DNA of 45,104 nt, taken from IMG/VR virus record IMGVR_UViG_2619619135_000002. One strand, 5' to 3'. The first letter of the stretch is position 1, and every line of letters starts with the position of its first letter. Under the pieces are notes generated by a model. The model was not told the origin of the DNA. It searched no databases and saw only the letters and a program-made list of their open reading frames with translations. Position numbers and translations under genes: made by a program. Below are positions 568-40,348 of the stretch, piece after piece. Origin of the DNA: a virus (lineage: Duplodnaviria > Heunggongvirae > Uroviricota > Caudoviricetes).

Positions 568-2877
568 CTACCGTACCCGCACAAATAACCCCACAATAGT
601 GTTGTTGTCAGCCATCAGTACACCACCCGAACCAGATAACGCTCTGTATGCTCCGGGCAGAGAAAGTGAATATGACCGTCCACTGACATAACAAGTTGGT
701 GTGATTCCTTTTACGCCGGCGCCTGTCGCCACCCCTCCCGAGAATTCCACATGCCCCAGCCTTGAGCCAGGATAAATCTTTCCTCTCTGCAGAGTTCTGG
801 TCATATCGCTGTCTGATGTACCGTAATAGGCTGCAAGAATAATATTACCGACTTCCGGGGCCTGGCTATCACTCCCAAGCAGACTGGCAATCCCGCTTCT
901 GTTTATGTAGCCTGAGTCCCAGGGGCGCAGGGACGGGTTTGTGGGATTTGCATCAAGAACTGTTCGATAGACATCCCCATACTGACCATAAAATGTCAGT
1001 AATTTTCTTTTGCCCTGATGTTCTGCCTGACTGTATACCCTGTCAGAAATTTTAATTTCGAGCACTCCGGTAAAACCAATATCCGGAATGATGGGATTAA
1101 AATCCGGATGTGTTCTCTGCTCCACAAGGTAGCGCCCTGGCGGCGTCTGCATACACCAGGTTACAAGCTCAGACTGACCATCACTGGCACTAAAATATTT
1201 AATCGTCGAAGTCAGTGCTCCAAAACCCAATGTCCCCGGTAATGCTCCTCTCCCTTCAGTGCGATCATAAATATTACTTTGTAATGCCACGCTATCTGAG
1301 ATTTCAAGCACCTGCCGCATATCTTCGGATGTGAACTGCGCCAGCAGTGAGCGGGCTTTTGCTGACAACGGAGACAGCGCGATATTCCCTCCGGTATTAA
1401 AATACAGAAGGTTATCTGCCCGTACTGTTAATTTGCTAATCGCTGTTAAAATATCGCTAAGCGGCTGTTTACCTGCCAGTGCGTTAGTGACCGTCGTCGC
1501 AAAGTTTGGGTCATTACCCAGCGCCGCTGCCAGTTCGTTCAGCGTGTCCAGGGCTTCCGGGGACGAGCCAACCAGCGCAGCGAGCAGTTTGCGGACAAAC
1601 GCCGCATTCGCCATCTCCAGTCCGACCGCATCATCCGGTGGGGTTGGTGTGGTTGGCGTACCGGTGAATGCCGGGCTGTCCAGCGGCGCTTTGGTTTTCG
1701 TCTCGTCCATGACGATTTTGACGGCTTTTGGGGTTGCAGCAAATGCTTCAGATGTGCTGTTGGCAGCACTGCTGAGCTGTACTATTCCCTTTTTCGTTGT
1801 ACTCGCATCCTCAAGCCCCACGGCGGATGCGATATCCTCTGCCCGCTTTGCCGCTGTCTCGGCTCGGGTTGCCGCGGACTCTGCTGTACTTTTGCTCCGC
1901 TCAGCCTCCGCCGCACTGTCTGCCGCCTCTGTCGCCTTCGTAGCCGCAGCGTTGGCGGACGTCTCTGCAGCAGTTTCTGAATCTGCTGCAGCTGAGGCGT
2001 TCTGTGCTGCCGCTGTTTCAGAAGACCTTGCGTTCGTCTCGGACGTTTTTGCCGCCTTCGCGGAATTTCCTGCCGCCGTTGCCGAGGAGGCTGCACTACT
2101 GGCGCTCGAGGCTGCACTCGTTTCTGATGATTTTGCCGCCTCTTTTGAAGCCGCCGCATTCCGGGCTGAAGTGGCTGCTTCTGACGCTTTCGTGGTCGCG
2201 GTGGATGCAGAAGTGGCTGCTGATTGTTGTGACGCTGCCGCATTCGTTTCAGACGTTTTCGCGGCACCGGCACTGGTGGCCGCCGCGCTTTTTGAGGACT
2301 CTGCTGCGGCAGCACTTTTTGATGCTTCAGTGGCCTTTGCTGATGCCGTTCCTGCGCTGGAAAAAGCCTCCTGAGCCGACGTCGCGGCCTGTCCGGCTGA
2401 CGTTCTGGCTGCGCGTGCTGAGTCTGCAGCATCAGTCGCATGGGTTGCCGCCTCACGGGCTGATGTGCTGGCATCGCTGGCTGACTTCTTCGCGGCTGCC
2501 GTGTTCTGTGCCACTACGGACGCGTTACGCGCCACCTCTTCCACCATCAGTTCAAAACGGCGCAGTGCCTCCGGACGGGCATCATCCTCCGTCATGGCAC
2601 CGAGAAAATCATTCAGCGTACCGGGTTGAGAATCTTCATACACGGTGATGGTCCCGGCATGTGACGGCGGGAATCCTTCCACCAACAGAATAACGCTGTA
2701 CTGACCGTACTCAACGTCCATGCTGTAACGCCCGGCTTCATCCGGATTTTCTGAGGCCACCGTGTTCACCACCACCGTGGTGCTGTTACGTTTTGCTTTC
2801 AGCTGGATTGTGCAGTTCTGTACCGGTTTTCCTGTGCCGTCTTTCAGTACACCTGAAATCTTTACTGCCATATTCAC
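568..2877 (-). CDS. stf: Side tail fiber protein (Stf-like)
   Basis: 769-aa ORF between lom and tfa with a long Ala/Ser/Thr-rich repetitive central region typical of lambdoid side tail fibers. Confidence 0.75.
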   Translation of the reverse strand: MNMAVKISGVLKDGTGKPVQNCTIQLKAKRNSTTVVVNTVASENPDEAGRYSMDVEYGQYSVILLVEGFPPSHAGTITVYEDSQPGTLNDFLGAMTEDDARPEALRRFELMVEEVARNASVVAQNTAAAKKSASDASTSAREAATHATDAADSARAARTSAGQAATSAQEAFSSAGTASAKATEASKSAAAAESSKSAAATSAGAAKTSETNAAASQQSAATSASTATTKASEAATSARNAAASKEAAKSSETSAASSASSAASSATAAGNSAKAAKTSETNARSSETAAAQNASAAADSETAAETSANAAATKATEAADSAAEAERSKSTAESAATRAETAAKRAEDIASAVGLEDASTTKKGIVQLSSAANSTSEAFAATPKAVKIVMDETKTKAPLDSPAFTGTPTTPTPPDDAVGLEMANAAFVRKLLAALVGSSPEALDTLNELAAALGNDPNFATTVTNALAGKQPLSDILTAISKLTVRADNLLYFNTGGNIALSPLSAKARSLLAQFTSEDMRQVLEISDSVALQSNIYDRTEGRGALPGTLGFGALTSTIKYFSASDGQSELVTWCMQTPPGRYLVEQRTHPDFNPIIPDIGFTGVLEIKISDRVYSQAEHQGKRKLLTFYGQYGDVYRTVLDANPTNPSLRPWDSGYINRSGIASLLGSDSQAPEVGNIILAAYYGTSDSDMTRTLQRGKIYPGSRLGHVEFSGGVATGAGVKGITPTCYVSGRSYSLSLPGAYRALSGSGGVLMADNNTIVGLFVRVR

Positions 2878-2935
2878 CCCACAAAAAAGCCCGCCTGAAC
2901 CGGCGGGCTGTCATAACACTGTGTTACCTGGCTAA

Positions 2936-3535
2936 TCAGAATTTATAACCGACACCCACGATGAAACCGTCAGTGCGCCAGTCACCACTGCCGGAGCCTT
3001 CATAAGCAATATCAATGGCCACGGATTCGGTCGGGTTAAACTGCACGCCTGCCCCCCACGCCAGAGACGTGTTGCTGTGGCGACTGTCATCACTTCCGGT
3101 CAGCACATCGTGCTTTTTCCCCTTGTTGTCAGTTACGCGGAGATAATCTCCGGAGAAAGTCGAAACACGGCTGTAAGCCACACCCGCCATCGCATACGCG
3201 CTGAACCATTCATTCACGCGCACAGAGGGCCCCGCCATCACGCTGAACCAGCGGTTACGCACTGAATCTTCATGCCAGCGGGTATCGCTGTAACGGGTAA
3301 GCTGGCGATTCTTGTCTCCTGCATAGCTGAATGACGTCACCAGCCCCAGTGTGTCCGTAAACTCATAACGGTATTTCACGTTAATCCCGTTCAGATTATC
3401 GCTGCCGGGAGCGTTCGTTGAGGCATGGATATACCCCGCGCTCAGCGTGGACTGATGTTCTGCTGCACTCGCTGGCGTAGCAGCGGCGACCTGCCAGACT
3501 ACTGCGGACAAAATAACAGCACATAATTTACGCAT
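2936..3535 (-). CDS. lom: Outer membrane protein Lom (Ail/Lom family beta-barrel)
   Basis: 199-aa ORF with an N-terminal signal peptide and C-terminal ...GVGYKF; closely matches lambda Lom as I recall it; sits immediately after J. Confidence 0.9.
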
Positions 3536-3602: not shown

Positions 3603-6600
3603 TCAGCTAATCGTGATGCCTGCAGTGGCTTTCTTCATCACCACAACCAGCAAATCGCTGATACTTGCTGTGGGATACCAGTTATTTACCAGCCACGCTG
3701 ACACCGAAAACTCCAGCGTCATGTGACCGTGACCAGCCGGCATATCAATAACACCACTGTAAATCAGCGTATTATCCAGCGCGGTACGGTTATAAATTTC
3801 AGCGCCGTTTTTCCGTACGATCAGACGGCATGAGGAGTAAATATCAGTATGCTCTTTCTCATGTTTAGCGCCACTGAATGCCACCGCCGGAATAACAATC
3901 TGCCGGTCAAACGGCTGATCGTCATAAACCCTGACGGTAATGGTTCCTGATGGCCACCGCTCCGGTGCACGGGAGTCCCGGGGGAAAGCTTTGCCCACTG
4001 TTTTAACGAGATCGCCTTCAATCTGGTTCGCGGACAGTTTTCCCAGAACCCGACAGTTCTCGTTAATCGTGACGTTGTTGAGCGTCCCGGAGTTCGCATT
4101 CACGTTACCGCTGATATCGGCATTTTTCGCCGTCAGCCGCCCGTCCGGTGTCAGGGAAAATGCCGGAGGATTACCGCCGCTGGTAATGGTCGGAGCCGTC
4201 AGGCGTTTCAGGAACACGTCGTTCATGAATATCTGATCGCCCTGACCAACAAACATTGGTCTTGTGTTGCCATTAGACGGATCAATAAACGCGATACGGT
4301 TAGCGGCAACCAGGAACTGGCTCAGTTTGCCTTCCTCCGTGTCCTCCATGCTGAGGCCAAGCCCCGCGACATAATGCTTACCGTCTTCGGTCTGCTCAAT
4401 TTTGACGCCCCACATGGCATTCCATTTATCGTTGGCGTCCTTCCACTCTTTCGAAAACTCCTCCAGTTTGCTGGCGTTATCTTCCGTCAGCTCGACTTTT
4501 TCCAGCAGCTCCTTGCCGAGATGGGATTCGGTTATCTGACCTTTGAAAAAATCCAGATAACCTTCCGCATCATCGCTCGCCCGACCGACAGCCTCTACGA
4601 ATGCCGATTTGCCAACGGTGTTCACACTGCAGATATAAAAGTAATAATCATGGCCCGGTTTGATATTGATACTGGCAGCTATCCAGTACAGCGCCGTGCC
4701 AAGATAGCGGGCTGTGGTTTCAACCTGCCTGATATCGGTAATCCGCTTTTCCGAGAACCAGAACTCAAACTGTACCGTCGGATCATAAACCGCAAGATGC
4801 GGCGTGGCGGTGATCTGAAAATAGCCCGGCGTCAGCTCAATCTGTGACGGCGCTGCCGGTGCGGCAATCCGGAACGATACCGATGCCGGATCGCCCTGCT
4901 GTCCCCACGCATTTACCGCCCGGACTGTCAGCCTGTAGTTCCCCAGCGCCAGCTGCCTGAAGCGGTATGTGGTTTCCGTCGTCCGGGCCGTGCTGACCAG
5001 CCGCTCACTGCCGTCATCCGCTGCCACGGCCAGGCGAAGCAGGAAGCTCACGCCCTTCACCACCTTCGGCGTGTCCCAGCGCGCCAGCACCTGATATTCT
5101 CCGCTGTCTGCGGTGGCTTCGGCAGTCAGGTGCTGCACTGCTGGCGGCGTGACACCATTCACCGTGCCGCTCAGATCGCCGTCAAAGTGCGCCCCGTTAT
5201 CCACGATGGCCTCTTTTTCCGGTACATGCTGCACGGCAGTGATGGCATACGTGCCGTCATCGTTCTCACGGATACTCACGCAGCGGAACAGGCGCTGGCG
5301 CAACGTCGGCAGCTTCAGTCCCCATACGCTGTATTCTGCAACGCCGTCAGGAACACGGCTCACTTTCACCTTCACGCCGTCGGTGACGGACTGAACCTCC
5401 ACGCTGACCGGATTGCCACTTCCGTCAACCAGGCTTATCAGCGTGGTACCGGAGGATGGCAGCGTGATTTCACGGTCGAGCGTCAGTGTCCGGGTCTGGC
5501 TGTTCACCGCCAGCACGCGACCACCGGTGCGGATACCGGCATAGTCATCATCACAGATTTCAATAACATCGCCCGGTACATGGCGAAGCCCTTCTGCGCC
5601 GACGCTGAAATCCACGGTCTGCGTTTCCAGCAGTTCTGTTTTAATCAGCCACAGCCCGGCGCGGTGTGCCTGCCCCCGGCTGGTACAGCCAAAGGCATCC
5701 ATCTTCGTAACATTACGACCGTAACGGGCAATGGCCTGCGTGTCCTCCACAAGCTCTGTCGCTGTCTCCCAGCCGTTATCCGGGTCAATCCAGTTCACCT
5801 CAACGGCATTATGGCGGTCCTTCAGGGCGCTGAAGCTGTAGCGGAACGGCGCGCCATCATCCGGCATAACCACATTACTGCGGTTATAGGTCCACACCTT
5901 ATCCGATGGTCGGTCCTGCACGAACGTCAGCGTCTGCCCGTTCCATACCGGCATACAGCGCATCGCCGAGCAGAAATCACTGAGCACATCCCACGCCTTG
6001 CGCTGTGTGGTCAGGTACGCATTACAGGTGATGCGCGGCTCCGTGCCACCAAAGCCGTCCGGCACTGACTGGTCGCAGTACTGGCCGATGACATACAGCG
6101 CCCATTTGTCCACATCCGCCGCACCAAGACGTTTCCCCATGCCGTAGCGCGGATGGGTCAGCATATCCCACAGACACCAGGCCATGTTGTTGCTGTATGC
6201 CGGTTTAAACGTTCCGTCCCAGATACCGCTGTATTGCCGCGTCTGCGGGTTATAGTTCGACGGCACCTGCAGAATGCGCCCGCGCAGATGATAATTACGG
6301 CTCACCTGCTGACTGCCGAACTGCTCCGAATCCACCTGTACGCCAACCAGTGCCGTGTTCGGGTAGCACTGTTTCACATCGATGATTTCAGTGTATGACG
6401 ACCAGAGCGTTTTGTTCTGCAGCTGGTCTGTGGTGCTGTCCGGCGTCATCCTGCGCATCCGGATGTTGAACGGGCGCGGCGGCAGGTTACCCACCACCAC
6501 CGAGGCCAGATACTGCGAGGTGGTTTTGCCCTTAATGGTGATGTCTTTTTCCGTCACCCAGCCACCGTTACGTTGTATCTGAACCAGCAGGCGGACTTCC

Positions 6601-6998
6601 GACGGATTCCGGTCCCCCTTTGAGGTGGTTTCCACCAGTGCCTGCACACCGAAGGTAAAGCGCAGACGGTCGATGTTTGCCGACGTGATGGTCCGGGTGA
6701 TCGGCGTGTCGTACTTCACTTCCGTACCCAGCACCGTCTCGGAGCCGGAGGATTCAAATCCCTCCGGCGGTGTCTGCTCCTGCTCACCTGCCCGGAACAC
6801 CACCGTGACACCGGAGATGTTGGTATTCCCCTCAGTGTCCAGCACCGGCGTACTGTTCAGCAGCACGCTTTTTAATCCCTCCACCGGACCTTCAATCGGC
6901 CCTTCACTGATGGCATCGATCACACTCAGCAACTGCGTGGACTTCAGGTTGTCCTTCGCTTCGCGCGGGGTATGCCCCTTACTGCTGCCTTTACCCAT
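3603..6998 (-). CDS. J: Tail tip / host specificity protein J
   Basis: 1131-aa ORF (lambda J is 1132 aa); position after I; C-terminal receptor-binding region present. Confidence 0.95.
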
Positions 6999-18052: not shown

Positions 18053-21733
<3,681 letters not shown>

Positions 21734-21759
<26 letters not shown>

Positions 21760-22279
21760 TCAGCAACCCCGGTATCAGTTCATCCAGCGCGGCTGCTTTG
21801 TTCATGGCTTTGATGATATCCCGTTTCAGGAAATCAACATGTCGGTTTTCCAGTTCCGGAAAACGCCGCTGCACCGACAGGGGGATCCCGTCGAGAATAC
21901 TGGCAATTTCACCTGCGATCCGCGACAGCACGAAAGTACAGAATGCGGTTTCCACCACTTCAGCGGAGTCTCTGGCATTTTTCAGCTCCTGTGCGTCGGC
22001 CTGCGCACGCGTAAGTCGATGGCGTTCGTACTCAATAGTCCCTGGCTGGAGATCTGCCTCGCTGGCCTGCCGCAGTTCTTCAACCTCCCGGCGCAGCTTT
22101 TCGTTCTCAATTTCAGCATCCCTTTCGGCATACCATTTTATAACGGCGGCAGAGTCATAAAGCACCTCATTACCCTTCCCACCGCCTCGCAGAACGGGCA
22201 TTCCCTGCTCCTGCCAGTTCTGAATGGTACGGATACTCGCGCCGAAAATGTCAGCCAGCTGCTTTTTGTTGACTTCCAT
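21734..22279 (-). CDS. Nu1: Terminase small subunit Nu1
   Basis: 181-aa ORF, MEVNKKQLADIFGASIRTIQNWQEQGMPVLRGGGKGNEVLYD..., wHTH; matches lambda Nu1. Confidence 0.95.
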
Positions 22280-23317: not shown

Positions 23318-23533
23318 TTAGCTAAGTCCGACAGACATAAAATCATCACTACCTAAACGATGGGAACCATAACGAACTTCATACTCCCCATTCAATTCAG
23401 AGCGTTTAGACTTTGCGCCATCCTCCGTTGCATAAATGCCGACCAGATGCCAGGGTTTGTCACGTACTACAGCCCAACCAAGAACCCATCCCTGATTATC
23501 AGGATCAGCCTTCAGGTTATTTTCTACAAACAT
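23318..23533 (-). CDS. Hypothetical protein (71 aa)
   Basis: Start set at MFVENNL, preceded by AAAAGGAGAACACT-ATG (strong SD); the listed ORF starts 10 codons earlier. Confidence 0.5.
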   Translation of the reverse strand: MFVENNLKADPDNQGWVLGWAVVRDKPWHLVGIYATEDGAKSKRSELNGEYEVRYGSHRLGSDDFMSVGLS

Positions 23534-23573
23534 AGTGTTCTCCTTTTGGGTACCCAGAGACATTCTATGTCAT

Positions 23574-23798
23574 TCATGAAACAAGCAACAACGTGGCCGT
23601 TACAATCCCCGCCATATTTGCGTTCAGATCACATTCAACAGAAATTTCTTCATCCGTGGCATCCACTTCATATGTCCGGGAATAACACTCCGTGCATTTA
23701 CCGCTGAAGATATCCTTAACCAGAACACGTCCACGCTGCAAAACCCTGAATGGAATCGTTCCGTTAAAGGGCTTTACGGTTACCAGTAATCTCTTCAT
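23574..23798 (-). CDS. Hypothetical protein (74 aa, contains a C-x-x-C pair)
   Basis: Start set at MKRLLVTVKPFNG, preceded by GGAGGGG SD; the upstream extension of the listed ORF lacks an RBS. Confidence 0.5.
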   Translation of the reverse strand: MKRLLVTVKPFNGTIPFRVLQRGRVLVKDIFSGKCTECYSRTYEVDATDEEISVECDLNANMAGIVTATLLLVS

Positions 23799-23971
23799 AT
23801 CCCCTCCGGATAAAAATGCCCCTTGCCGCCCGGGCTGTTGTTCAAAGTTCATCCTGATTCGGCAAGATTCAGAATGTATAAGACAAATTGGCACACACAG
23901 CAGAATTTCATGCTTTCCGGACGCTGGCGCATCCTTCATTTTTCAGCGAAATATTCTGCTCTTACAGGCGA

Positions 23972-24154
23972 TCAGTTCTGCAGACACTGCCGAACACCGT
24001 CGACAATTTCACAGACCCGAGACGCGGTATCGAAAAGCTGGCGCGCCTTATCCAGGCTGACGCATCCCACCAATAAAAAAGGCACCAGTATCGCTACCAG
24101 TGCCCATTTCGCCGCCGTTCGCGGCATTCTGTGTGTCCAGTGTTTTCGCGTCAT
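23972..24154 (-). CDS. Small lipoprotein (60 aa; lipobox LLVGC; 29-aa mature part with two further Cys)
   Basis: N-terminal basic region, hydrophobic stretch and L-V-G-C lipobox; start codon 2 nt after the stop of a 37-aa membrane peptide. Confidence 0.6.
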   Translation of the reverse strand: MTRKHWTHRMPRTAAKWALVAILVPFLLVGCVSLDKARQLFDTASRVCEIVDGVRQCLQN

Positions 24155-24155
24155 A

Positions 24156-24269
24156 TCACCACCAACGCACAGCCCAAATCAGAACAGCGACCGCCACAAG
24201 GCGAATTGCAAAGGCCGCAGCCCTTGTCAAATCAAGGCTCGCGGGAGTTTCCACTTCAATACCTTTCAT
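24156..24269 (-). CDS. 37-aa single-pass membrane peptide, translationally coupled to the lipoprotein
   Basis: ATG at 24269 to TGA at 24156 encodes MKGIEVETPASLDLTRAAAFAIRLVAVAVLIWAVRWW; below the ORF-track size cutoff; read manually. Confidence 0.4.
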   Translation of the reverse strand: MKGIEVETPASLDLTRAAAFAIRLVAVAVLIWAVRWW

Positions 24270-24360
24270 AATGGACAACCTCAAAAAGAATCTTTTATAC
24301 TTTCCCACGAGGATTTTCTCCGTACTCACTACTCACAATTTCCTCTTTGACGTGAAAACT

Positions 24361-24400
24361 AAAAACCCCGGGCTGTTCCAGCAGCCGGGGTTTTGTTTTG
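24361..24400 (-). terminator. Bidirectional rho-independent terminator directly after the endolysin
   Basis: AAAAA-CCCCGGGCTG-TTCCA-GCAGCCGGGG-TTTTGTTTTG: GC hairpin flanked by an A-run and a T-run. Confidence 0.7.
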
Positions 24401-24401
24401 C

Positions 24402-24785
24402 TTATCGTTTCAACTGAAAGTGAGGCCCGTCTTTCAGTGTTTTCCAGTCCCCGCCCCATTCGATGGCAGTTCCCAGCTCTGCGGCAGCCTGCTTAAACGC
24501 CTGCGCGATTTTCTCGTACAGAGGCCAGTCCCATGACACCTGGCTACCAATGTAGGCCACGACATCCACCGCATCACCGGTCAGGTGGCGGCTGTTCATG
24601 GTCTGGCTCTTACCTTCTGCAACCAGCTGTTTCTGGCGATACTTACTGCGCAGACCTTCCGTAATACCGAAATCAACCTCCGTCAGCTCCAGTGCACGGC
24701 GAACGACAGCAACCAGCTGTGGTTTAACGCCCTCCAGATTTTTTTCACTGCGACGACTGAATCTGAATTTACCCGACATACTCAC
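24402..24785 (-). CDS. Endolysin, peptidase M15 (L-alanyl-D-glutamate / D-Ala-D-Ala peptidase-type)
   Basis: 127 aa with ...SRHLTGDAVDV... and ...WGGDW... segments typical of zinc M15 phage endolysins; last gene of the lysis cassette. Confidence 0.75.
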   Translation of the reverse strand: MSMSGKFRFSRRSEKNLEGVKPQLVAVVRRALELTEVDFGITEGLRSKYRQKQLVAEGKSQTMNSRHLTGDAVDVVAYIGSQVSWDWPLYEKIAQAFKQAAAELGTAIEWGGDWKTLKDGPHFQLKR

Positions 24786-25057
24786 CTCAGGAATGGAAAG
24801 ATTTTTGTGACGTTCCCACGTGCGCGTATCACCAGCACGCAGAACAGCAGATTAAAAAACACCTGGAACCAGTCTGTTTCTAACGGGCGACCACACAGAT
24901 AGCTGAGTGGAACAAAGCCATAAAGCAGCATCAGCAACCAGGCCAGCCATGACATCAGCGGTTTATGTCTGGAATCACGGCGACGATAAAAAAAGAGCGT
25001 CAGCACGATAACCGTGCTTAACGCCACATTCAGCAATCCGGGAAGGTTACTTAACAT
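24782..25057 (-). CDS. Small membrane protein in the lysis cassette (possible antiholin or lysis accessory)
   Basis: Start set at MLSNLPGLL, preceded by GGAGGAGG SD; two or three hydrophobic segments; overlaps the holin stop and endolysin start. Confidence 0.55.
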   Translation of the reverse strand: MLSNLPGLLNVALSTVIVLTLFFYRRRDSRHKPLMSWLAWLLMLLYGFVPLSYLCGRPLETDWFQVFFNLLFCVLVIRARGNVTKIFPFLR

Positions 25058-25439
25058 TGCCGCCTCCTCCACCCCGCAGGCGGGAGAACAGGCCGGACAC
25101 CAGCGATGCAATATCCTGCTGGTGGATGAACGAGAGAATCTTCACCGACACCACTGACACCAGTACTGCACACAAGGCGTCGACAGGTGCACCGTCAAAC
25201 TCTGTATGCTTTACCAGCCAGGATGCCAGAACCTCTGCGCCCAGCACGCCGATAATGAACGACACCAGAAAATGCGCCGCCACACGCCAGGCTGAAAGCG
25301 CCTGCGGAATTGTTGCCACAAATAACGCCCCGGCGAACGCACCAAACACAATCCCGAAATCCGTTCCGGTAAACAGCCCGAATACCGTCGCCCCGCCGAG
25401 CGCCGCAGCCGTGCCGGAACCGGATAAGGGTTCAGACAT
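25047..25439 (-). CDS. Holin (130 aa, multi-TM, Gly/Ala-rich)
   Basis: Start set at MSEPLSGSG, preceded by CAGGAGAAAAAGT-ATG; three hydrophobic segments and a charged C-terminus; first gene of the lysis cassette. Confidence 0.7.
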   Translation of the reverse strand: MSEPLSGSGTAAALGGATVFGLFTGTDFGIVFGAFAGALFVATIPQALSAWRVAAHFLVSFIIGVLGAEVLASWLVKHTEFDGAPVDALCAVLVSVVSVKILSFIHQQDIASLVSGLFSRLRGGGGGNVK

Positions 25440-25457
25440 ACTTTTTCTCCTGTAAAT

Positions 25458-25479
25458 AAAAAAGGGCCACCAGCGGCCC
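25458..25479 (-). terminator. Rho-independent terminator immediately upstream of the holin
   Basis: Minus strand reads GGGCCGCTGGTGGCCCTTTTTTATTT. Confidence 0.65.
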
Positions 25480-25802
25480 GTAAAAAACAACACCCCGTCA
25501 AAGGCACCCGCAGATGCCTTCTGTGTGGTGTTATTCAGATTTGCGCCGTGCGTGGCGCGAAGAAATGAAATAAGACTTACCTGAAATTAAGGTTAATCCA
25601 GGGATTTAAACCATTTTTAATGCTTAGTAATATAAATGCGCCTCCCTGGAGGAGGCAGATGCTTATGATTCTTCATGGACTTTGTCCCGCGGCTTTAATC
25701 CGACGGCCGCGCCTTTTTTCACCCTCTCGCAAATTGCTAACCAAGGACCTTGTCCCACGAGTATTCCAGGATGCTCGTGTCTTTTTTTGTCCGGAGAAGA
25801 AA

Positions 25803-26082: not shown

Positions 26083-26157
<75 letters not shown>

Positions 26158-28110: not shown

Positions 28111-28512
28111 TTATCGATACAGATAAGCCATCCCTATCCCGTGCAATACCGCCCGTTTAATATTCTCAAACTCATCTTCCGCAATCATAGGAACAATATA
28201 ATTTCGTCCCTCCCAGGTTCTGGTTTTTATGCGATCCAGTCGGCTCAATGAAACCGTCATCAACATGTCACATTTTACCCAGCAAGTAATATGCTCATTA
28301 CCAGGTATGGGGTTTTCTGATAACTCATGATGGCAATCTCTGCGAGGGAGCGGTTCAGTAGTGCTTATTGGTACCACTGTTACCAATTGATTGTTGTGCC
28401 TGTTTCTGGACACGACCACCACTGGCCTGACCTTGACTATTTCCGGAACAACCATTCCCCGAAAATCACACATTAAAACAGAACGAACAGACGGCTGATA
28501 CTTTAATACCAT
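28111..28512 (-). CDS. PemK/MazF/Kid-fold toxin-like protein (133 aa from the ATG)
   Basis: MVLKYQPSVRSVLMCDFRGMVVPEIVKVRPVVVVSRNRHNNQLVTVVPISTTEP... aligns by eye to the MazF/Kid N-terminal pattern (Y.P.....DF......RP.VV.S....N...V.P..T). No antitoxin-sized ORF immediately upstream. Confidence 0.6.
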   Translation of the reverse strand: MVLKYQPSVRSVLMCDFRGMVVPEIVKVRPVVVVSRNRHNNQLVTVVPISTTEPLPRRDCHHELSENPIPGNEHITCWVKCDMLMTVSLSRLDRIKTRTWEGRNYIVPMIAEDEFENIKRAVLHGIGMAYLYR

Positions 28513-28616
28513 AAATCTCTTTGCCTGATAATGACGACTTGTGAACTCCACTACAAACAAAATGATTCTGCTGAACAGGCAGTTTCGCACTATACATTAT
28601 AACCTGTTAAGCCAAC

Positions 28617-28705: not shown

Positions 28706-29395
28706 TTAATCTACTTTTGCAACACTTTGCTTTGAAAATGCCGTCTTTTGTTCTGAACGTGTTCTCATCACAAACAATAAAGCCTCACTATCCAGCCGGT
28801 GGAAAATGTGTTTCATTGCAACCCAGTGACCAGTAAATGTTTTGGACCAGTTTTTTGTTTTTACTCCCGCCAGTAATGCCAGTTCCTGATATTCATAAGT
28901 TTCACGCCCAGCCAGCTCACTCTTCACATCCTGTGCCGCCAGCCAGATTAATTTTTTCAGGCGTTCCCGTGTTTTCTCCGCAATTTTTCTGGTACCGGAT
29001 TGAGTATTAAATTCATTCCACGCCCACTGTGTTATCGCGATCTGATATTCCCAACAAATACTCCCGCTGTAACTCCACAACAACCAGGCTTTATGATGTT
29101 CTTCAAGAGACAGAACAGCCCGCCGCCACGATGATGTCGAAAACTCAACCGGACTGACCAGAGGAATTGACGTCCCCTTCGCCAGCGATTGTTTTCCCGG
29201 GATTGGTGGATTATCCCGCGTAATCATTTTTCCGGTCACTTCATCTCGGTACCGGATTTTTTTACGCCTGTAACGCCCTGTATCGAACATGGCATTCTCC
29301 TGCCAGGCTTCAAGCTGACCTTTTGTTGCCCCACTCAAATCAGCGGTGGCGATAATGAGCTGCTCACGCACAAACTGTAAATACTGGTTATTCAT
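28706..29395 (-). CDS. Putative late-gene antiterminator (Q-like), 229 aa
   Basis: ATG overlaps the RusA stop (ATGA coupling), the arrangement seen in DLP12-type nin regions; followed by an intrinsic terminator and then late and lysis genes. Assignment is by position; the sequence is not recognisably lambda Q. Confidence 0.5.
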   Translation of the reverse strand: MNNQYLQFVREQLIIATADLSGATKGQLEAWQENAMFDTGRYRRKKIRYRDEVTGKMITRDNPPIPGKQSLAKGTSIPLVSPVEFSTSSWRRAVLSLEEHHKAWLLWSYSGSICWEYQIAITQWAWNEFNTQSGTRKIAEKTRERLKKLIWLAAQDVKSELAGRETYEYQELALLAGVKTKNWSKTFTGHWVAMKHIFHRLDSEALLFVMRTRSEQKTAFSKQSVAKVD

Positions 29396-29751
29396 GCGCA
29401 CTCCAGTTCTGTGATTTTTATCCCCAACCGACCACCAGGAACGAGCTGACCGCGCACAATATTGATTTCATCAAACTGCTCGTCGTCTATGAGAAGCCCC
29501 GCATGCATCAGTGCATCCAGCGGTGCTTTCAGGATATTGTCCAGGTCCCGACGGCGCTTATCCGGCGGCTCTGCAGTAATTTTTATTGCCAGCCTTCCGG
29601 ACAGGCTTAATTTCAGCCGCTGCTGGCGAACAATAAGCACCACAGCCCGGCGATAACGCTTTCCCTCCTCCGAGATAAAATATGTGCTGCCACGGCGTCG
29701 CCAGTAAGTGTTCACCGTCGGCGGGTAAGGTAAAACCAAATCTATGAGCAT
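29392..29751 (-). CDS. rusA: Holliday junction resolvase RusA
   Basis: 119 aa with ...PPDKRRRDLDNILKAPLDALMHAGLLIDDEQ..., the conserved RusA catalytic Asp region; size matches E. coli RusA (120 aa). Confidence 0.85.
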   Translation of the reverse strand: MLIDLVLPYPPTVNTYWRRRGSTYFISEEGKRYRRAVVLIVRQQRLKLSLSGRLAIKITAEPPDKRRRDLDNILKAPLDALMHAGLLIDDEQFDEINIVRGQLVPGGRLGIKITELECA

Positions 29752-31551: not shown

Positions 31552-31707
31552 TTACTCCTCAGGTTCGTAGACTGTGAAGACAGCGACCTCCGTCTGGCCG
31601 GTTCGGATTCGTACCTCGCAGAGGTCTTTCCTCGTTACCAGTGCCGTCACTATGACGGTTAAACAGATGACGATCAGGGCGATTAACATCGCCTTTTGCT
31701 GCTTCAT
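31552..31707 (-). CDS. hok: Hok/Gef-family type I toxin (HokD/RelF-like), 51 aa
   Basis: MKQQKAMLIALIVICLTVIVTALVTRKDLCEVRIRTGQTEVAVFTVYEPEE: single TM helix plus the conserved C-x-[VI]-R periplasmic motif; near-identical to HokD as recalled. The in-frame upstream extension in the listed ORF is likely leader (mok-like) sequence. Confidence 0.85.
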   Translation of the reverse strand: MKQQKAMLIALIVICLTVIVTALVTRKDLCEVRIRTGQTEVAVFTVYEPEE

Positions 31708-32554
31708 AGCCTGCTTCTCCTTGCCTTTCGGCACGTAAGAGGCTAACCTAGATTTGCCGTTCATAGATTGAGCCTCAGATTAATGTTAAGCGTCTTGCAG
31801 GACGCGTAATGTTAACTGGGGCTTTTCTCTATCTGCCTTTGGTGTTCATGCCTGAGACAGATAGCCTCAAGCACCCGCAGCCATTGTACTTAACTCCCGT
31901 TACCTCGCCAATATAAAATCAATCAGAAAGGCGATCCATAAGGACAATAGCAAGACAATAAATTGCCATTACCCGCAATAGCCAGCGCACATTTGAGGAC
32001 CAGCACGACAACTTTCTGTATCGGACGTACACCAGTCCTGATAAATACAAGGCGGTCTCATCAGTGATGAAATGCAACTATTGAGTACAGTTTCTCTGAT
32101 TTTTCTGTAAAACATGGAACACAACAACTAAATATAACTAGCACTTCTTAAGATGTACAAATTCAGAGTTAAGATAACGTAAGCAGTTTTCTCAAAACTA
32201 AGTGTAAATTTTTAATGAAGAGCAGTGCTATGCTCCTGATCATATATTCATTGTTTGGAACTGGAGGAATATTTAGGTTGCTGGAGTGGTTGATTGAATT
32301 TAAATCAACTAAGACAAAAACCAACAATTAAAGATATGTGGTATATCAGAAAACAACTATCCGTATATTACTACAGAATTAAATACTAGCAACAAAGCTG
32401 TCTTTATTGATTTTTTATCTGATATCGAAATAAATAAACATAAAATAACCAACTAATTAAAACAGAGACTCGACAATGAGCCTCTATCTATTGTAACAGC
32501 ACTTCCAAATTTATTTTAGTAAGATAATAGCATGGGGCATACTAGCCCCATCTT

Positions 32555-35059
32555 TTAAACCGTTTCATCAAGGAAATACTTAGACGAATCATCCTGTTTC
32601 GGTTGATATGTTTTTTTTGCAGAATTAAGAACTCTTCTTAGTTCTTTTCTTAACTCAGGTAAACGCTCCTGAAGAGGGTTAGAACACCATTGTGAAGGCA
32701 ACCCTCTTATAATAGCTTCGGAACAAAGCGGTGAAATAAGTTTTTCCATTTGATAATAGAAAGTTTTTGCTCGACTTACACGCATTGTGATCCTTTTTAT
32801 TACATCTCTTTCAGACTCAATTCTAGCACTCAGATCTCTTAATCTACTCCATACCTTAGCATCAGCAATATATGTATCATAAAGCATACACTCTATAAAC
32901 GTGAAATTACTAATAAGTTCTTTTGCAATATACCCCCCCAGCCGAGAAGGAATGAAACTTGATGAAGCTGTTGGATCTCCGTGATTTACGGTGAACAAAA
33001 ACCTTTTATTGCATAAATCAACGAGAACTCGATGCGTGAAAGAGTCACCTATACCAATTAACCTTAACTTTTCAGTTATTACCGAACCATCGATTTGTCT
33101 GAATCCGGGATCGCTTGCATACGAAACGATAACATTAAGAATGTACAGCCTCAATAATTGCATTTGTGTCACAGCTAAATTCGAATCAAACGGGTTCGCA
33201 ATAGTCGACGTTGACTCGCTATAAGTCAACTCAGTACCCAGTAATATAGCTCTAAATGCCTCATGACGTGGAAGAAGATATCTTCCTTGTTCTCTGAAAA
33301 TTTGTACTGCTTTACCTGGACTCGTATACCCTCTTTCTAAGAACTCACGAGTCATACGTAATGCTAATCGAACATCATCCGTAGCAAGAACTTCAATACG
33401 TGTTCCAATCTCACTTCCCAGCACAGACCCACTAATAATATCGACTAATTGTGATATATCATCCAATACAACTTTAGCGCCATTTTCTGCAATAAAATTT
33501 CCACTTTTATTACTTGTCATATACTTTACTAGTGCAAAGCGTTTTGCAATCACACTACTTATTCTCGGTGGATCTATTTGTATAACTTCAAAATCGAAAG
33601 CATCTATAGCAGGTGAGTTTTTATGTTTGATAAATGTAGACTGCCTCAATGAAAGTACTAAATTTAATGAAAGCGCTCTGGAAATTGAAAATGACTCGGT
33701 AAATATCCGGGACTGGATATCATCAAACTCGATCTGATCAACGTTATCAATAACAAGAAAAAAAGATGTCTCTTTTGTAACGCGACTTATTATTTTATCA
33801 ACATAAGGTTTTATCTTTTTATATTGTTCATATAAAAAATCCGAGATTCTGGTATTTTTTTGATCCTCACTCAATAAAAAAAGAGGTCCTGATTTTATCG
33901 CCTCAATATCTTCTCGAAATGCATCAAATACAAAATCCTTATTACTCAAAACAGGATGCTTATTGATATATTCCAGAATTGATTTATAAATAAAATCGAC
34001 TATTGAACTTTCTGATGGATTATCTAGAAAGTCTATATGAACCCAATGCGGCGTCAAGATATCACATTGATTTGAAAAAAACTCTTTTATTCTAACCTTT
34101 CTCATGTAATGAAGAAATGTTGTTTTACCTGCACCTACAGTCCCAAGTAACAAGATCGCGAGAGGTTTGTCATTCCTGACTTTTATTTTTTTCTTCCCTT
34201 TAACCTGAAACTTATCAACTATTCTTTTTGTATCTTTATCATTAAGCCCTTTTAGTACTTCACCATTCAGCACACTTGAACGCCTACCTATATTCATTCT
34301 AATTTTACTATCGAATCTCATAGTTTCTGGTGTTGAAACATAACATTTATCAAAGGAGTCTTCATCCAAGTAAAGTATAGAATCAGAAAAAGCCAACCTT
34401 AATTCATCAGCAATCAAATGATATATTGGATTATTTGTCTGTGTTCTGTTTTGTTGCGAATAAAAATTTCTTAATTTTCTAAATTCTATTTGATTTTCGA
34501 CGCGACCTAAAAGTGCTGTTTCTAGACTTCCTGATATAACATTTTCACGACTAAGTAAATCATAGAATTCTTGATAATTATCATTTAAGCAATCTTCTAA
34601 CGACCAGAACACAAGCGCTATTGAATCATTAAATTTGACATTGTCATGCCTCTGAGCTGCAAAACATGCCCATACATTTCCATTCGTAGCGACAGCATAA
34701 TCTATACCAAATTTCCTGGCGTAATCTCTAGCTTGTATTATCGCTTCACCAAGATCACTTTGTAAAAAACTATTACTTAGCTTTATTTTTCTTTTTCCTG
34801 GAATTGTACTAAAGCTTGGCCCTGCCTTTTTAGCTTCAACAACAAGAGCAATATTAGCTGTTTTTAGTATATAATCAGCATAAGTTGTCAAACCATCTTC
34901 AGTCACATGCTCTTCTGGTTTTATATCACTATCAGTCCACATCAAGACTTCCTTTAATACCCGATCTATCACTTTTAGTCTTGTGGCTGCTTCATTTGCA
35001 TTTTCTAATTGTAAATGATGATAAGCTGATAATATTTCCGAAATAAATGTTTTCTCCAT
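32555..35059 (-). CDS. Large nuclease-NTPase fusion protein: N-terminal PD-(D/E)xK (HsdR-N/Mrr-like) nuclease domain plus STAND/NACHT-like P-loop NTPase plus alpha-helical C-terminal domain; candidate antiphage defence protein
   Basis: 834 aa. Residues about 60-77 TYADYILKTANIALVVEAKK give the D...E-x-K nuclease signature, followed by ...YAVATNGNVW... Walker A at about 306-313 (GTVGAGKT); Walker B at about 433-442 (FFLVIDNVDQ, a D-x-h-D-E/Q pattern typical of STAND NTPases). The gene and its flanks are visibly AT-rich relative to the rest of the prophage. Confidence 0.6.
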   Translation of the reverse strand: MEKTFISEILSAYHHLQLENANEAATRLKVIDRVLKEVLMWTDSDIKPEEHVTEDGLTTYADYILKTANIALVVEAKKAGPSFSTIPGKRKIKLSNSFLQSDLGEAIIQARDYARKFGIDYAVATNGNVWACFAAQRHDNVKFNDSIALVFWSLEDCLNDNYQEFYDLLSRENVISGSLETALLGRVENQIEFRKLRNFYSQQNRTQTNNPIYHLIADELRLAFSDSILYLDEDSFDKCYVSTPETMRFDSKIRMNIGRRSSVLNGEVLKGLNDKDTKRIVDKFQVKGKKKIKVRNDKPLAILLLGTVGAGKTTFLHYMRKVRIKEFFSNQCDILTPHWVHIDFLDNPSESSIVDFIYKSILEYINKHPVLSNKDFVFDAFREDIEAIKSGPLFLLSEDQKNTRISDFLYEQYKKIKPYVDKIISRVTKETSFFLVIDNVDQIEFDDIQSRIFTESFSISRALSLNLVLSLRQSTFIKHKNSPAIDAFDFEVIQIDPPRISSVIAKRFALVKYMTSNKSGNFIAENGAKVVLDDISQLVDIISGSVLGSEIGTRIEVLATDDVRLALRMTREFLERGYTSPGKAVQIFREQGRYLLPRHEAFRAILLGTELTYSESTSTIANPFDSNLAVTQMQLLRLYILNVIVSYASDPGFRQIDGSVITEKLRLIGIGDSFTHRVLVDLCNKRFLFTVNHGDPTASSSFIPSRLGGYIAKELISNFTFIECMLYDTYIADAKVWSRLRDLSARIESERDVIKRITMRVSRAKTFYYQMEKLISPLCSEAIIRGLPSQWCSNPLQERLPELRKELRRVLNSAKKTYQPKQDDSSKYFLDETV

Positions 35060-39782: not shown

Positions 39783-40348
39783 TTCATCCTCCTGAGGGTT
39801 AGTAATTAAGGAGTTCTCCACGGGTGAGGTGGAGTGCGTGCGCCGGACACGGGTGAGCATCCGGCACTGACAGTTTACTGAAAGGATATCTCCCTGAAAA
39901 GTCAGGGCATAACGCGAAAGCGCACGGCGAAGTTGTTGGTTCATAGATAGCCTGTCGTTAAATTTTCGTCGACCGTGCGCTTCCGGTTGTGGCACTCCGC
40001 GAAATGGCGCGGCGGTAAGTATGGCGGGGTTATTCCTTCCCCGTTGAGGACACCGGGTTGTCAGGTTGACCATACGCTTAAGTGACAACCCCGCTGCAAC
40101 GCCCTCTGTTATCAATTTTCTGGTGACGTTTGGCGGTATCAGTTTTACTCCGTGACTGCTCTGCCGCCCTTTTTAAAGTGAATTTTGTGATGTGGTGAAT
40201 GCGGCTGAGCGCACGCGGAACAGTTAAAACCAAAAACAGTGTTATGGGTGGATTCTCTGTATCCGGCGTTAATTGTTAACTGGTTAACGTCACCTGGAGG
40301 CACCAGGCACCGCATCAACAAAGTTCATTTGTAAAAATGGAGATAATT

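Follow-up and report, generated by a model that had tools for sequence, protein, structure and literature searches.

In phage lambda, the final step of lysis, in which the outer membrane is disrupted, is the task of Rz and Rz1, and how phages without a recognizable spanin pair break this membrane is an open question (Kongari 2018, PMC6139136). Here we describe two small tandem genes, encoding a 37-residue membrane peptide and a 60-residue prolipoprotein, in a 45,104-nucleotide stretch of viral DNA (IMG/VR record IMGVR_UViG_2619619135_000002), the whole of which is referred to as the window. The window is a complete lambdoid prophage whose genes are read from the minus strand, and its closest relatives among isolated phages are phiSTEC1575-Stx2k and phiP27. 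The lipoprotein resembles Rz1 in being a small, predicted outer-membrane lipoprotein with periplasmic cysteines, encoded as the last element of the lysis cassette at the same position relative to the endolysin gene. The two proteins share no sequence similarity. Rz1 is embedded in Rz, is proline-rich and unstructured, and has a mature part of 40 residues. By contrast, the window lipoprotein has a non-overlapping open reading frame (ORF) of its own, its mature part of 30 residues contains no proline and is predicted to be helical, and no Rz-like partner is present in the window.

Two further systems act at the same membrane. The unimolecular spanin (u-spanin) gp11 of phage T1 likewise stems from one gene of the lysis cassette; it bears a lipoprotein signal for the outer membrane, and there is no separate inner-membrane subunit (i-spanin). 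The u-spanins are anchored in the inner membrane by a C-terminal transmembrane segment and contain a beta-rich periplasmic domain of about 100 residues. The window lipoprotein, by contrast, ends in a polar sequence with no hydrophobic C-terminus and has a mature part of only 30 residues, and thus does not fall among the u-spanins. The protein gp28 of phage phiKT is not known to carry a lipobox. A preprint presents it as a "disruptin", a cationic protein resembling antimicrobial peptides (bioRxiv 10.1101/515445), and, as described there, it is comparable to the window lipoprotein as a small helical peptide that would replace spanins at the outer membrane in a phage without a spanin complex. The mature part of the window lipoprotein differs from it in being roughly neutral and, by prediction, lipid-anchored.

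The closest catalogued relative is found in phiP27. The spanin census of Kongari et al. 2018 (PMC6139136) lists this phage with a "separated" two-component spanin, whose two subunits, each the sole member of its family, together have 62 periplasmic residues, which makes it the shortest in the census. Its outer-membrane subunit (o-spanin; 20706-20861, 51 residues from Met10, mature part of 30 residues) belongs to the same family as the window lipoprotein, with 93% identity. The lipoprotein is therefore already catalogued bioinformatically as the phiP27 o-spanin. What is new is that it has no partner, occurs in several cassette types and is common in Escherichia coli, that the peptide module is shared with phages carrying Rz/Rz1, and that the lipoprotein gene contains a conserved hairpin. 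We favor, with a probability of about 0.58, the reading that it is a partnerless lysis lipoprotein of the o-spanin class, accompanied by an accessory membrane peptide, at the distal end of a P27-type cassette that has been interrupted by a portable module. Literature searches on the RefSeq accessions and on "orphan o-spanin" returned nothing specific and no experimental work on the lipoprotein.

The lipoprotein and its position in lysis cassettes

The ATG of the lipoprotein gene, at 24154, lies 1 nucleotide (nt) past the stop codon of the peptide gene (TGA-T-ATG), and the Shine-Dalgarno-like sequence GGTGGTGA at the 3' end of the latter would provide its ribosome-binding site, probably with translational coupling. 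The signal peptide consists of a basic n-region, a 12-residue h-region (WALVAILVPFLL) and the lipobox L-V-G-C31, and is followed by Val at +2, where the Asp sorting signal is absent. The signal peptidase II site was called by the lipobox rule, applied by script. Because of the lipobox, the processing rules of Lgt, LspA and Lnt, and Lol sorting in the absence of Asp at +2, Sec is predicted to export the protein, signal peptidase II to cleave it after lipidation of Cys31, and Lol to deliver it to the outer membrane, where it would reside in the inner leaflet. The periplasmic part would then be a helix of 30 residues, bearing one conserved cysteine pair (Cys48 and Cys57), which is predicted to be capable of forming a disulfide, and a polar C-terminus (...VDGVRQCLQN). 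AlphaFold2 returned a single long helix for the prolipoprotein (pLDDT 68), which carries no information beyond helical propensity, and Jpred assigned 83% helix to the mature part of the phiP27 homologue (table in Kongari et al. 2018, PMC6139136).

The gene is under purifying selection, with a ratio of nonsynonymous to synonymous divergence (dN/dS) of 0.09-0.49 over all comparators and of 0.28-0.30 against the most distant clade (loci L170 and L086). The lipobox cysteine is retained in 165 of 167 copies, and Cys48 in all copies long enough to reach that position; Cys57 is missing from one distinct protein version among those checked. The pair is kept in members down to about 55% identity, save in a few frame-shifted or truncated sequences. 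Both PGAP and the census of Kongari et al. start the protein at Met10. Relatives have T, I, V or Q in place of this residue but retain both Met1 and the HWTHRxPR stretch; Met1 is therefore the start, and the 60-residue call is right. A match to phrog_7528, a family with no assigned function, covers 60 of its 60 positions (E = 8e-38). A profile search of 1.84 billion representatives recovered only 24 relatives of the lipoprotein, themselves cluster representatives, and provided no link to a known family. No match was found in Pfam (E <= 0.1), NCBIfam or PADLOC for either the lipoprotein or the 37-residue peptide, and PADLOC had none for the related peptides either. Matches to the lipoprotein occur in 317 of 5426 complete E. 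coli genomes, and a species-level genome scan returned only 3 loci.

The signal peptide is more strongly conserved than the mature part, with a dN/dS of 0.16 in the n-region, and the h-region differs in more distant members. This pattern points to a function of the membrane-embedded precursor in the inner membrane, the site of holin action, and spaninless phages exist; the lipoprotein might accordingly regulate the timing of lysis or the activity of holin or endolysin, as an antiholin-like or release factor, in a phage that is itself spaninless. We regard this as improbable. Across the loci the lipoprotein is combined with holins of two unrelated types and endolysins of three unrelated types, a range that speaks against a specific partner in either group, the conservation of the h-region is partly explained by the RNA hairpin described below, and in the mature part the cysteine pair and the helix persist throughout the family.

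To place the gene in its context, 80 viral contigs (IMG/VR) were retrieved via the lipoprotein, and the upstream region was readable in 74. In 74 of these 74 loci the lipoprotein is the last gene after the holin(s) and endolysin, which is the position of Rz/Rz1 in lambda. It lies 17 nt past the stop codon of the M15 endolysin in 30 loci, with a Shine-Dalgarno sequence of its own and nothing in between. The 37-residue gene stands directly upstream in 23 loci (12 after an M15 and 11 after a GH108 endolysin), and a related phrog_1115 peptide in 15, usually followed by a second small membrane peptide, phrog_4906; the remaining 6 carry other inserts. Four further cassette types put the lipoprotein at the same terminal position. 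It overlaps the GH108 endolysin by 4 nt in L174, overlaps a GH108 endolysin behind a lambda-S-type holin in Lelliottia, follows a CHAP endolysin by 3 nt in the metagenome contig L170, with the same lambda-S holin type as in Lelliottia, and stands behind an Ant-like insert in Salmonella. The accompanying holins are either Phage_holin_8 with Phage_holin_3_7 or the lambda-S type Phage_holin_3_1, and in many loci the only neighbors are the endolysin and soluble ORFs. Because the terminase modules downstream differ between loci, and three endolysin types and two holin types occur upstream, the lipoprotein travels with the lysis genes. The first-pass annotation, made from the window alone, had set the two genes outside the lysis operon. 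That description is misleading in view of the 17-nt and overlapping arrangements; in the window an inserted module of about 250 nt displaces the lipoprotein from the endolysin.

A lipoprotein gene at this place could also serve the lysogen, as a moron for lysogenic conversion or superinfection exclusion of the kind represented by Bor, Cor and T5 Llp. Like Llp, the product is small and, by prediction, a lipoprotein of the outer membrane whose mature part could form a disulfide. The neighborhood of lambda bor is similar, Bor is encoded on the opposite strand in 8 related loci, and inserted cargo is concentrated here, in the form of small peptides, Ant-like genes and a phrog_36812 ORF. Cor and Llp, however, are linked to tail or receptor-binding genes, whereas the window lipoprotein remains next to the lysis genes across loci with different terminase modules and is not tied to receptor specificity. 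It is co-oriented with the endolysin at a distance of 17 nt, 3 nt or -4 nt, mostly with no terminator in between, has no predicted sense promoter and never co-occurs with Rz/Rz1, and its intragenic, terminator-like hairpin would block expression from transcripts that are not antiterminated. Together with the negative Pfam, NCBIfam and PADLOC searches, these features make the moron explanation quite unlikely, and with it the surface-exclusion function suggested at first pass. An entericidin-like toxin/antidote pair had also been proposed there. Entericidins A and B, like Cor and Llp, are small enterobacterial lipoproteins, some of this class being phage-borne, but in the entericidin pair each partner is a lipoprotein. 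Of the two ORFs considered here, the peptide ORF has no lipobox, neither has a Pfam match, and the genes occur independently, which speaks against such a pair.

No other spanin was found. A six-frame scan of the 45-kb window yielded no lipobox ORF besides the 60-residue lipoprotein. The same scan of 89 lipoprotein loci detected no Rz1-like ORF, while control loci gave Rz1, and tblastn with Rz and Rz1 produced matches in four Rz-linked loci only and none in the lipoprotein loci. Neither the window nor the related loci yielded an ORF fit to be a cognate i-spanin, with type II topology in the inner membrane, a coiled coil in the periplasm and a place around, overlapping or next to the lipoprotein gene. 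The initial observations that the lipoprotein has no partner of i-spanin size and a mature part that is not proline-rich are thus upheld. The only Rz/Rz1 phage with a homologue of the lipoprotein is GER2, in which Rz/Rz1 is intact and the lipoprotein frame-broken; the remnant (L089, 2488-2681) lies downstream of Rz/Rz1 and a bor-side gene, just before the terminase. The lipoprotein and Rz/Rz1 are therefore mutually exclusive as intact genes. A survey of 279 Stx phages, which found Rz in 277 and a metallopeptidase endolysin in two (PMC8136144), is compatible with this exclusivity.

The i-spanin listed for phiP27 in the census (20348-20542, 64 residues, TTG start, no coiled coil; PMC6139136) is the sole published assignment of such a partner to the lipoprotein family, and it fails on inspection. 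The ORF sits in an insert that is unique to phiP27 among about 175 loci and absent from the window. It matches no family itself and runs antisense to a 90-residue ORF with a full-length match to phrog_36812. The census assignment is very probably spurious, and we rejected the ORF as a feature of the family. Because it is unique to one phage and antisense to a real gene, the lipoprotein family is left without a conserved inner-membrane partner. In the phiP27 locus (L002) these ORFs occupy 2658-2852 (+), 2642-2914 (-) and 2983-3171 (+), and the GenBank record of phiP27 annotates L32 in a frame other than that of the lipoprotein ORF.

Since the Q gene lies upstream and no sense promoter is predicted, the lipoprotein would be made late, from a Q-antiterminated transcript shared with the two holins and the M15 endolysin. 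It would act at the final step of lysis, when the outer membrane is disrupted, either alone or through a partner not yet recognized, as no phage-encoded i-spanin is conserved; this role we infer from gene position only. The o-spanin attributes present are an outer-membrane lipobox signal (by rule), a location in the lysis cassette and periplasmic cysteines. With no cognate i-spanin found, the protein is best described as a lipoprotein in the spanin role and not as a demonstrated member of a two-component spanin. The early suggestion of a minimal spanin variant consequently holds for the lipoprotein, as the terminal gene of the lysis cassette and a census o-spanin, and fails for the 37-residue peptide.

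Several points weigh against a lysis function of this kind. The mature domain of 30 residues is too short to span an intact periplasm, and because it is so short and has no conserved inner-membrane partner, the canonical mechanism of bridging and membrane fusion cannot apply as described. As lambda bor demonstrates, a gene for a lipoprotein can adjoin a lysis cassette without serving in lysis. The mutual exclusion with Rz/Rz1 could come from the ancestry of the cassettes and not from functional replacement, and, given that about 13% of the phages in the census are spaninless (PMC6139136), the lack of another spanin is no proof of the role. The stronger conservation of the signal peptide is odd for a protein thought to act through its mature domain. 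The family is narrow, as the 24 cluster representatives among 1.84 billion attest, and the function of the 37-residue peptide is not assignable from sequence.

One alternative, which we consider unlikely, is that the lipoprotein is a self-sufficient disruptor of the outer membrane and represents a third solution beside spanin complexes and the disruptin. In its most specific version the lipoprotein could be a single-gene spanin, the uncleaved precursor being a type II inner-membrane protein, its strongly basic n-region and its h-region unusually well conserved, and the mature form anchored by its lipid in the outer membrane. The two forms could be linked through their shared helical, cysteine-bearing segment and tie the membranes together once the wall is removed by the endolysin, and the 37-residue peptide would act on the N-in/C-out transmembrane segment common to Rz and the prolipoprotein. 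If the lipoprotein does suffice for outer-membrane disruption, it would be the smallest device known to do so, and one to which the bridging-and-fusion model would be inapplicable; if it does not, common prophages, including Stx2e and Stx2k phages, lyse spaninless. The family offers a tractable E. coli case for this question, with the gene of a 60-residue lipoprotein in the spanin slot that is combined with three endolysin and two holin types.

The peptide gene and its module

The peptide gene is preceded by a GAGG Shine-Dalgarno sequence at 24282-24279, 9 nt upstream of its ATG, and encodes MKGIEVETPASLDLTRAAAFAIRLVAVAVLIWAVRWW, which comprises an acidic N-terminus of 16 residues and a C-terminal transmembrane segment with a FAIR motif. 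The peptide matches phrog_4493 (E = 7e-16), a family with no assigned function, and, via the transmembrane segment, the related families phrog_1115 and phrog_3246. Across the peptide family the N-terminus is variable, and the C-terminal transmembrane segment with an invariant A-x-x-F-A-I-R is kept. Among 12 distinct DNA versions of the ORF the variable sites are distributed 8/4/26 over the three codon positions, and comparison with the version linked to Rz gave an NG86 dN/dS of 0.03 at a proportion of synonymous differences (pS) of 0.71, which is near saturation. An upstream extension of 20 codons (GTG at 24329) would produce a 57-residue form that fitted phrog_4493 better. This form was rejected: the extension has no codon-position bias (7/6/9) and holds a stop codon in the Stx lineage, and the 37-residue call is therefore right. 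Both ORFs, the start of the peptide gene, the coupling geometry and the lipobox are as first annotated.

From the terminator downstream of the endolysin through the leader to the peptide gene, the sequence can be aligned as a block among three lineages: the window type, the phrog_1115 type and the type found in Stx phages and O157:H7. In the last of these the block follows the endolysin gene R and precedes Rz/Rz1, and the TGA-N-ATG junction is again present. The position of the module is constant, between the endolysin gene and the spanin-slot gene and joined to the start of the latter. A peptide of this family is absent from 36 of the 74 lipoprotein loci. The 37-residue gene belongs to a portable module of its own, which Rz/Rz1 phages also carry. 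The first-pass treatment of the two genes as a unit does not survive the homology search, since the peptide is missing from half of the lipoprotein loci and the module also precedes Rz/Rz1. We envisage that recombination placed the terminator-leader-peptide module between the endolysin and whichever gene occupies the spanin slot, the lipoprotein here and Rz/Rz1 in Stx phages.

The arrangement in the window invites the view that the two products form a two-component mini-spanin, in which the peptide is the inner-membrane and the lipoprotein the outer-membrane subunit. The genes are adjacent and probably translationally coupled, the predicted locations of the products fit the two subunits, and proteins with a C-terminal transmembrane domain could in principle serve as i-spanins (Kongari 2018, PMC6139136). 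We nevertheless consider it very unlikely. The peptide is dispensable in half of the loci and accompanies whichever gene fills the spanin slot, and therefore cannot be the i-spanin of the lipoprotein; in Stx phages and O157:H7 it precedes a complete Rz/Rz1, where an extra i-spanin would be needless, and is kept there at the dN/dS given above. Its transmembrane segment lies at the extreme C-terminus and leaves at most 16 residues in the periplasm, which together with a lipoprotein of 30 residues is too short for the envelope. It is moreover the N-terminal part that varies in the peptide family and the transmembrane segment that is conserved. Most likely, the product is a tail-anchored inner-membrane peptide that acts as an accessory or regulatory factor of the last lysis step.

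The Rz-linked variant of the peptide gene has a match in 1136 of the 5426 complete E. coli genomes, in 657 of them over at least 80% of the gene, and the window-type variant in 174. One or the other variant is found in about a fifth to a quarter of these genomes, including O157:H7, and a near full-length copy in about 14%. The gene for this very strongly conserved and, in E. coli, widespread membrane protein is annotated merely as hypothetical.

Genes for small membrane proteins accumulate where the endolysin gene meets the spanin-slot gene, and so does other cargo, for instance Ant-like genes and a 93-residue phrog_33497 ORF, which marks this junction as a hot spot. Other peptides with a single transmembrane domain that stand before the lipoprotein belong to phrog_1115 and phrog_4906 or represent a form with a variant N-terminus (L049, 3662-3844 and 3862-3996; L171, 2712-2972).

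RNA elements of the region

The terminator noted at first pass after the endolysin gene is confirmed. It begins 7 nt past the endolysin stop codon, is flanked by A and T runs, and folds with -20.1 kcal/mol (z = -3.9); two compensatory pair changes preserve its stem in another lineage.

A second terminator-like structure lies inside the lipoprotein gene. It consists of a stem of 10-11 bp with two G.U pairs, a GNRA loop (GCGA) and a following U6, and folds with -19 kcal/mol (z = -4.4). Third codon positions are variable at 3 of 9 sites inside the hairpin and at 36 of 38 in the remainder of codons 1-47 (Fisher p = 2e-4). Even with protein identity down to about 58%, as in the Lelliottia clade, codons for identical residues are unchanged in 9 of 10 cases inside the hairpin and in 6 of 19 outside, the flanks being saturated. 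In the alignment 98% of the cells are paired, five stem pairs have changes on one side only that leave them paired, and the loop occurs as GCGA, GUGA or GCAA, all of the GNRA type. A formal covariation analysis of the hairpin found no double compensatory changes, and its shuffle control was uninformative. Because the changes are one-sided and pair-preserving, the case for the hairpin is carried by the conservation of synonymous sites. The hairpin would account for part of the conservation of the h-region and not for that of the basic n-region. A plausible function would be to halt transcripts that are not antiterminated before the full lipoprotein message is made.

The only sigma-70-like site predicted in 23500-25700 is an antisense promoter (TGGACA-18-TATACT), which overlaps the spacer before the start codon of the peptide gene; no sense-strand promoter was predicted in the same interval. 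It faces the bidirectional terminator about 70 nt away, and could give rise to an antisense RNA of about 90 nt (approximately 24308-24398, plus strand) opposite the leader of the peptide gene. The Stx/Rz lineage retains both hexamers, and a comparable site in the third lineage reads TAGTCA-18-TATAAT. The predicted RNA, taken as 95 nt, folds better than shuffled sequences (z = -4.0). A search of 23800-24500 found no Rfam family at threshold; the antisense RNA matched P22 sar below threshold, with 22 bits where the gathering score is 43. The prophage Pas small RNAs of pathogenic E. coli were also considered as its identity and rejected, as these lie upstream of the holin and not between endolysin and Rz.

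These elements raise the possibility that the peptide is a type I toxin under the control of an antisense RNA, and the module a selfish or stress-responsive toxin-antitoxin cassette. A hydrophobic peptide with a single transmembrane segment, within the range of about 30-50 residues, has the size and shape of Ldr, Hok and TisB, and the prophage location, the promoter-like site and terminator in three lineages, the folding of the predicted RNA and the weak resemblance to sar would suit such a system. The odds appear low to us all the same. No sense promoter is predicted for the peptide gene, the antisense RNA would leave its ribosome-binding site uncovered, and no type I family is matched here at threshold, whereas the true hok/sok locus of the window scores 110 bits. 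The module furthermore has one fixed place in lysis cassettes, after the endolysin gene and before the spanin-slot gene, with whose start it is fused, which is atypical for type I loci.

Prophage setting

The coordinates of the features are collected in Table 1. Beyond the holins, in order of rising coordinates, follow a tRNA-Gly gene, a DNA methylase gene and the Q antiterminator gene, then the replication and immunity genes and the integrase gene. The lambda-like tail genes and the head genes with the terminase block lie on the other side of the lysis cassette.

Table 1. Features of the window (positions refer to the 45,104-nucleotide stretch)
Feature	Position	Strand	Evidence or remark
J homologue	3603-6998	minus	lambda-like tail genes
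Nu1	21734-22279	minus	head genes and terminase block
121-residue ORF after the lipoprotein gene	23574-23939	minus	matches only positions 99-170 of the 291-position phrog_2571
60-residue prolipoprotein, phrog_7528	23972-24154	minus	predicted signal peptide, residues 1-30; predicted mature part of 30 residues from Cys31
Cys48/Cys57 pair, predicted periplasmic	23984-24013	minus	around a D-G turn; conservation; spacing of 8-9 residues
Lipobox, codons 28-31 (L-V-G-C)	24062-24073	minus	Cys31 predicted lipidated; sequence and six-frame scan
Hairpin inside lipoprotein codons 17-28	24070-24105	minus	terminator scan; sense-strand-specific
37-residue small membrane protein, phrog_4493	24156-24269	minus	ATG 24269-24267, TGA 24158-24156
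Leader of the peptide gene	24270-24360	minus	last 35 nt near-invariant between lineages, one substitution
Predicted antisense sigma-70-like promoter	24272-24301	plus	TGGACA-18-TATACT; 10/12 matches
Bidirectional intrinsic terminator	24361-24395	minus	between endolysin and peptide genes; 5' boundary of the module
M15 metallopeptidase endolysin	24402-24785	minus	Pfam PF13539, E = 1.6e-12
Phage_holin_3_7	24782-25111	minus	Pfam PF05449, E = 7e-23; overlaps Phage_holin_8
Phage_holin_8	25047-25493	minus	Pfam PF16931, E = 2e-22
tRNA-Gly (anticodon TCC)	26083-26157	minus	between the methylase/Q region and the lysis cassette
ORF with PemK/MazF-like toxin domain	28111-28590	minus	PF02452, E = 8e-14; directly downstream of the Q gene
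Q antiterminator gene	28706-29401	minus	upstream of the lysis cassette
sok antitoxin RNA	31702-31876	minus	full-length match to Rfam RF01794; 110 bits, gathering score 59
834-residue ORF, early region	32555-35059	minus	no Pfam match at E <= 1e-5
DicF RNA	40118-40169	plus	full-length match to RF00039, 76.7 bits; immunity/early region

The 121-residue ORF that follows the lipoprotein gene resembles a truncated gene, and other genes stand at its place in relatives. The tRNA-Gly gene occupies the position where Stx phages carry tRNA and stx genes; the window has no stx gene. By its match to RF01794, the prophage contains a type I toxin-antitoxin locus of the hok/sok type.

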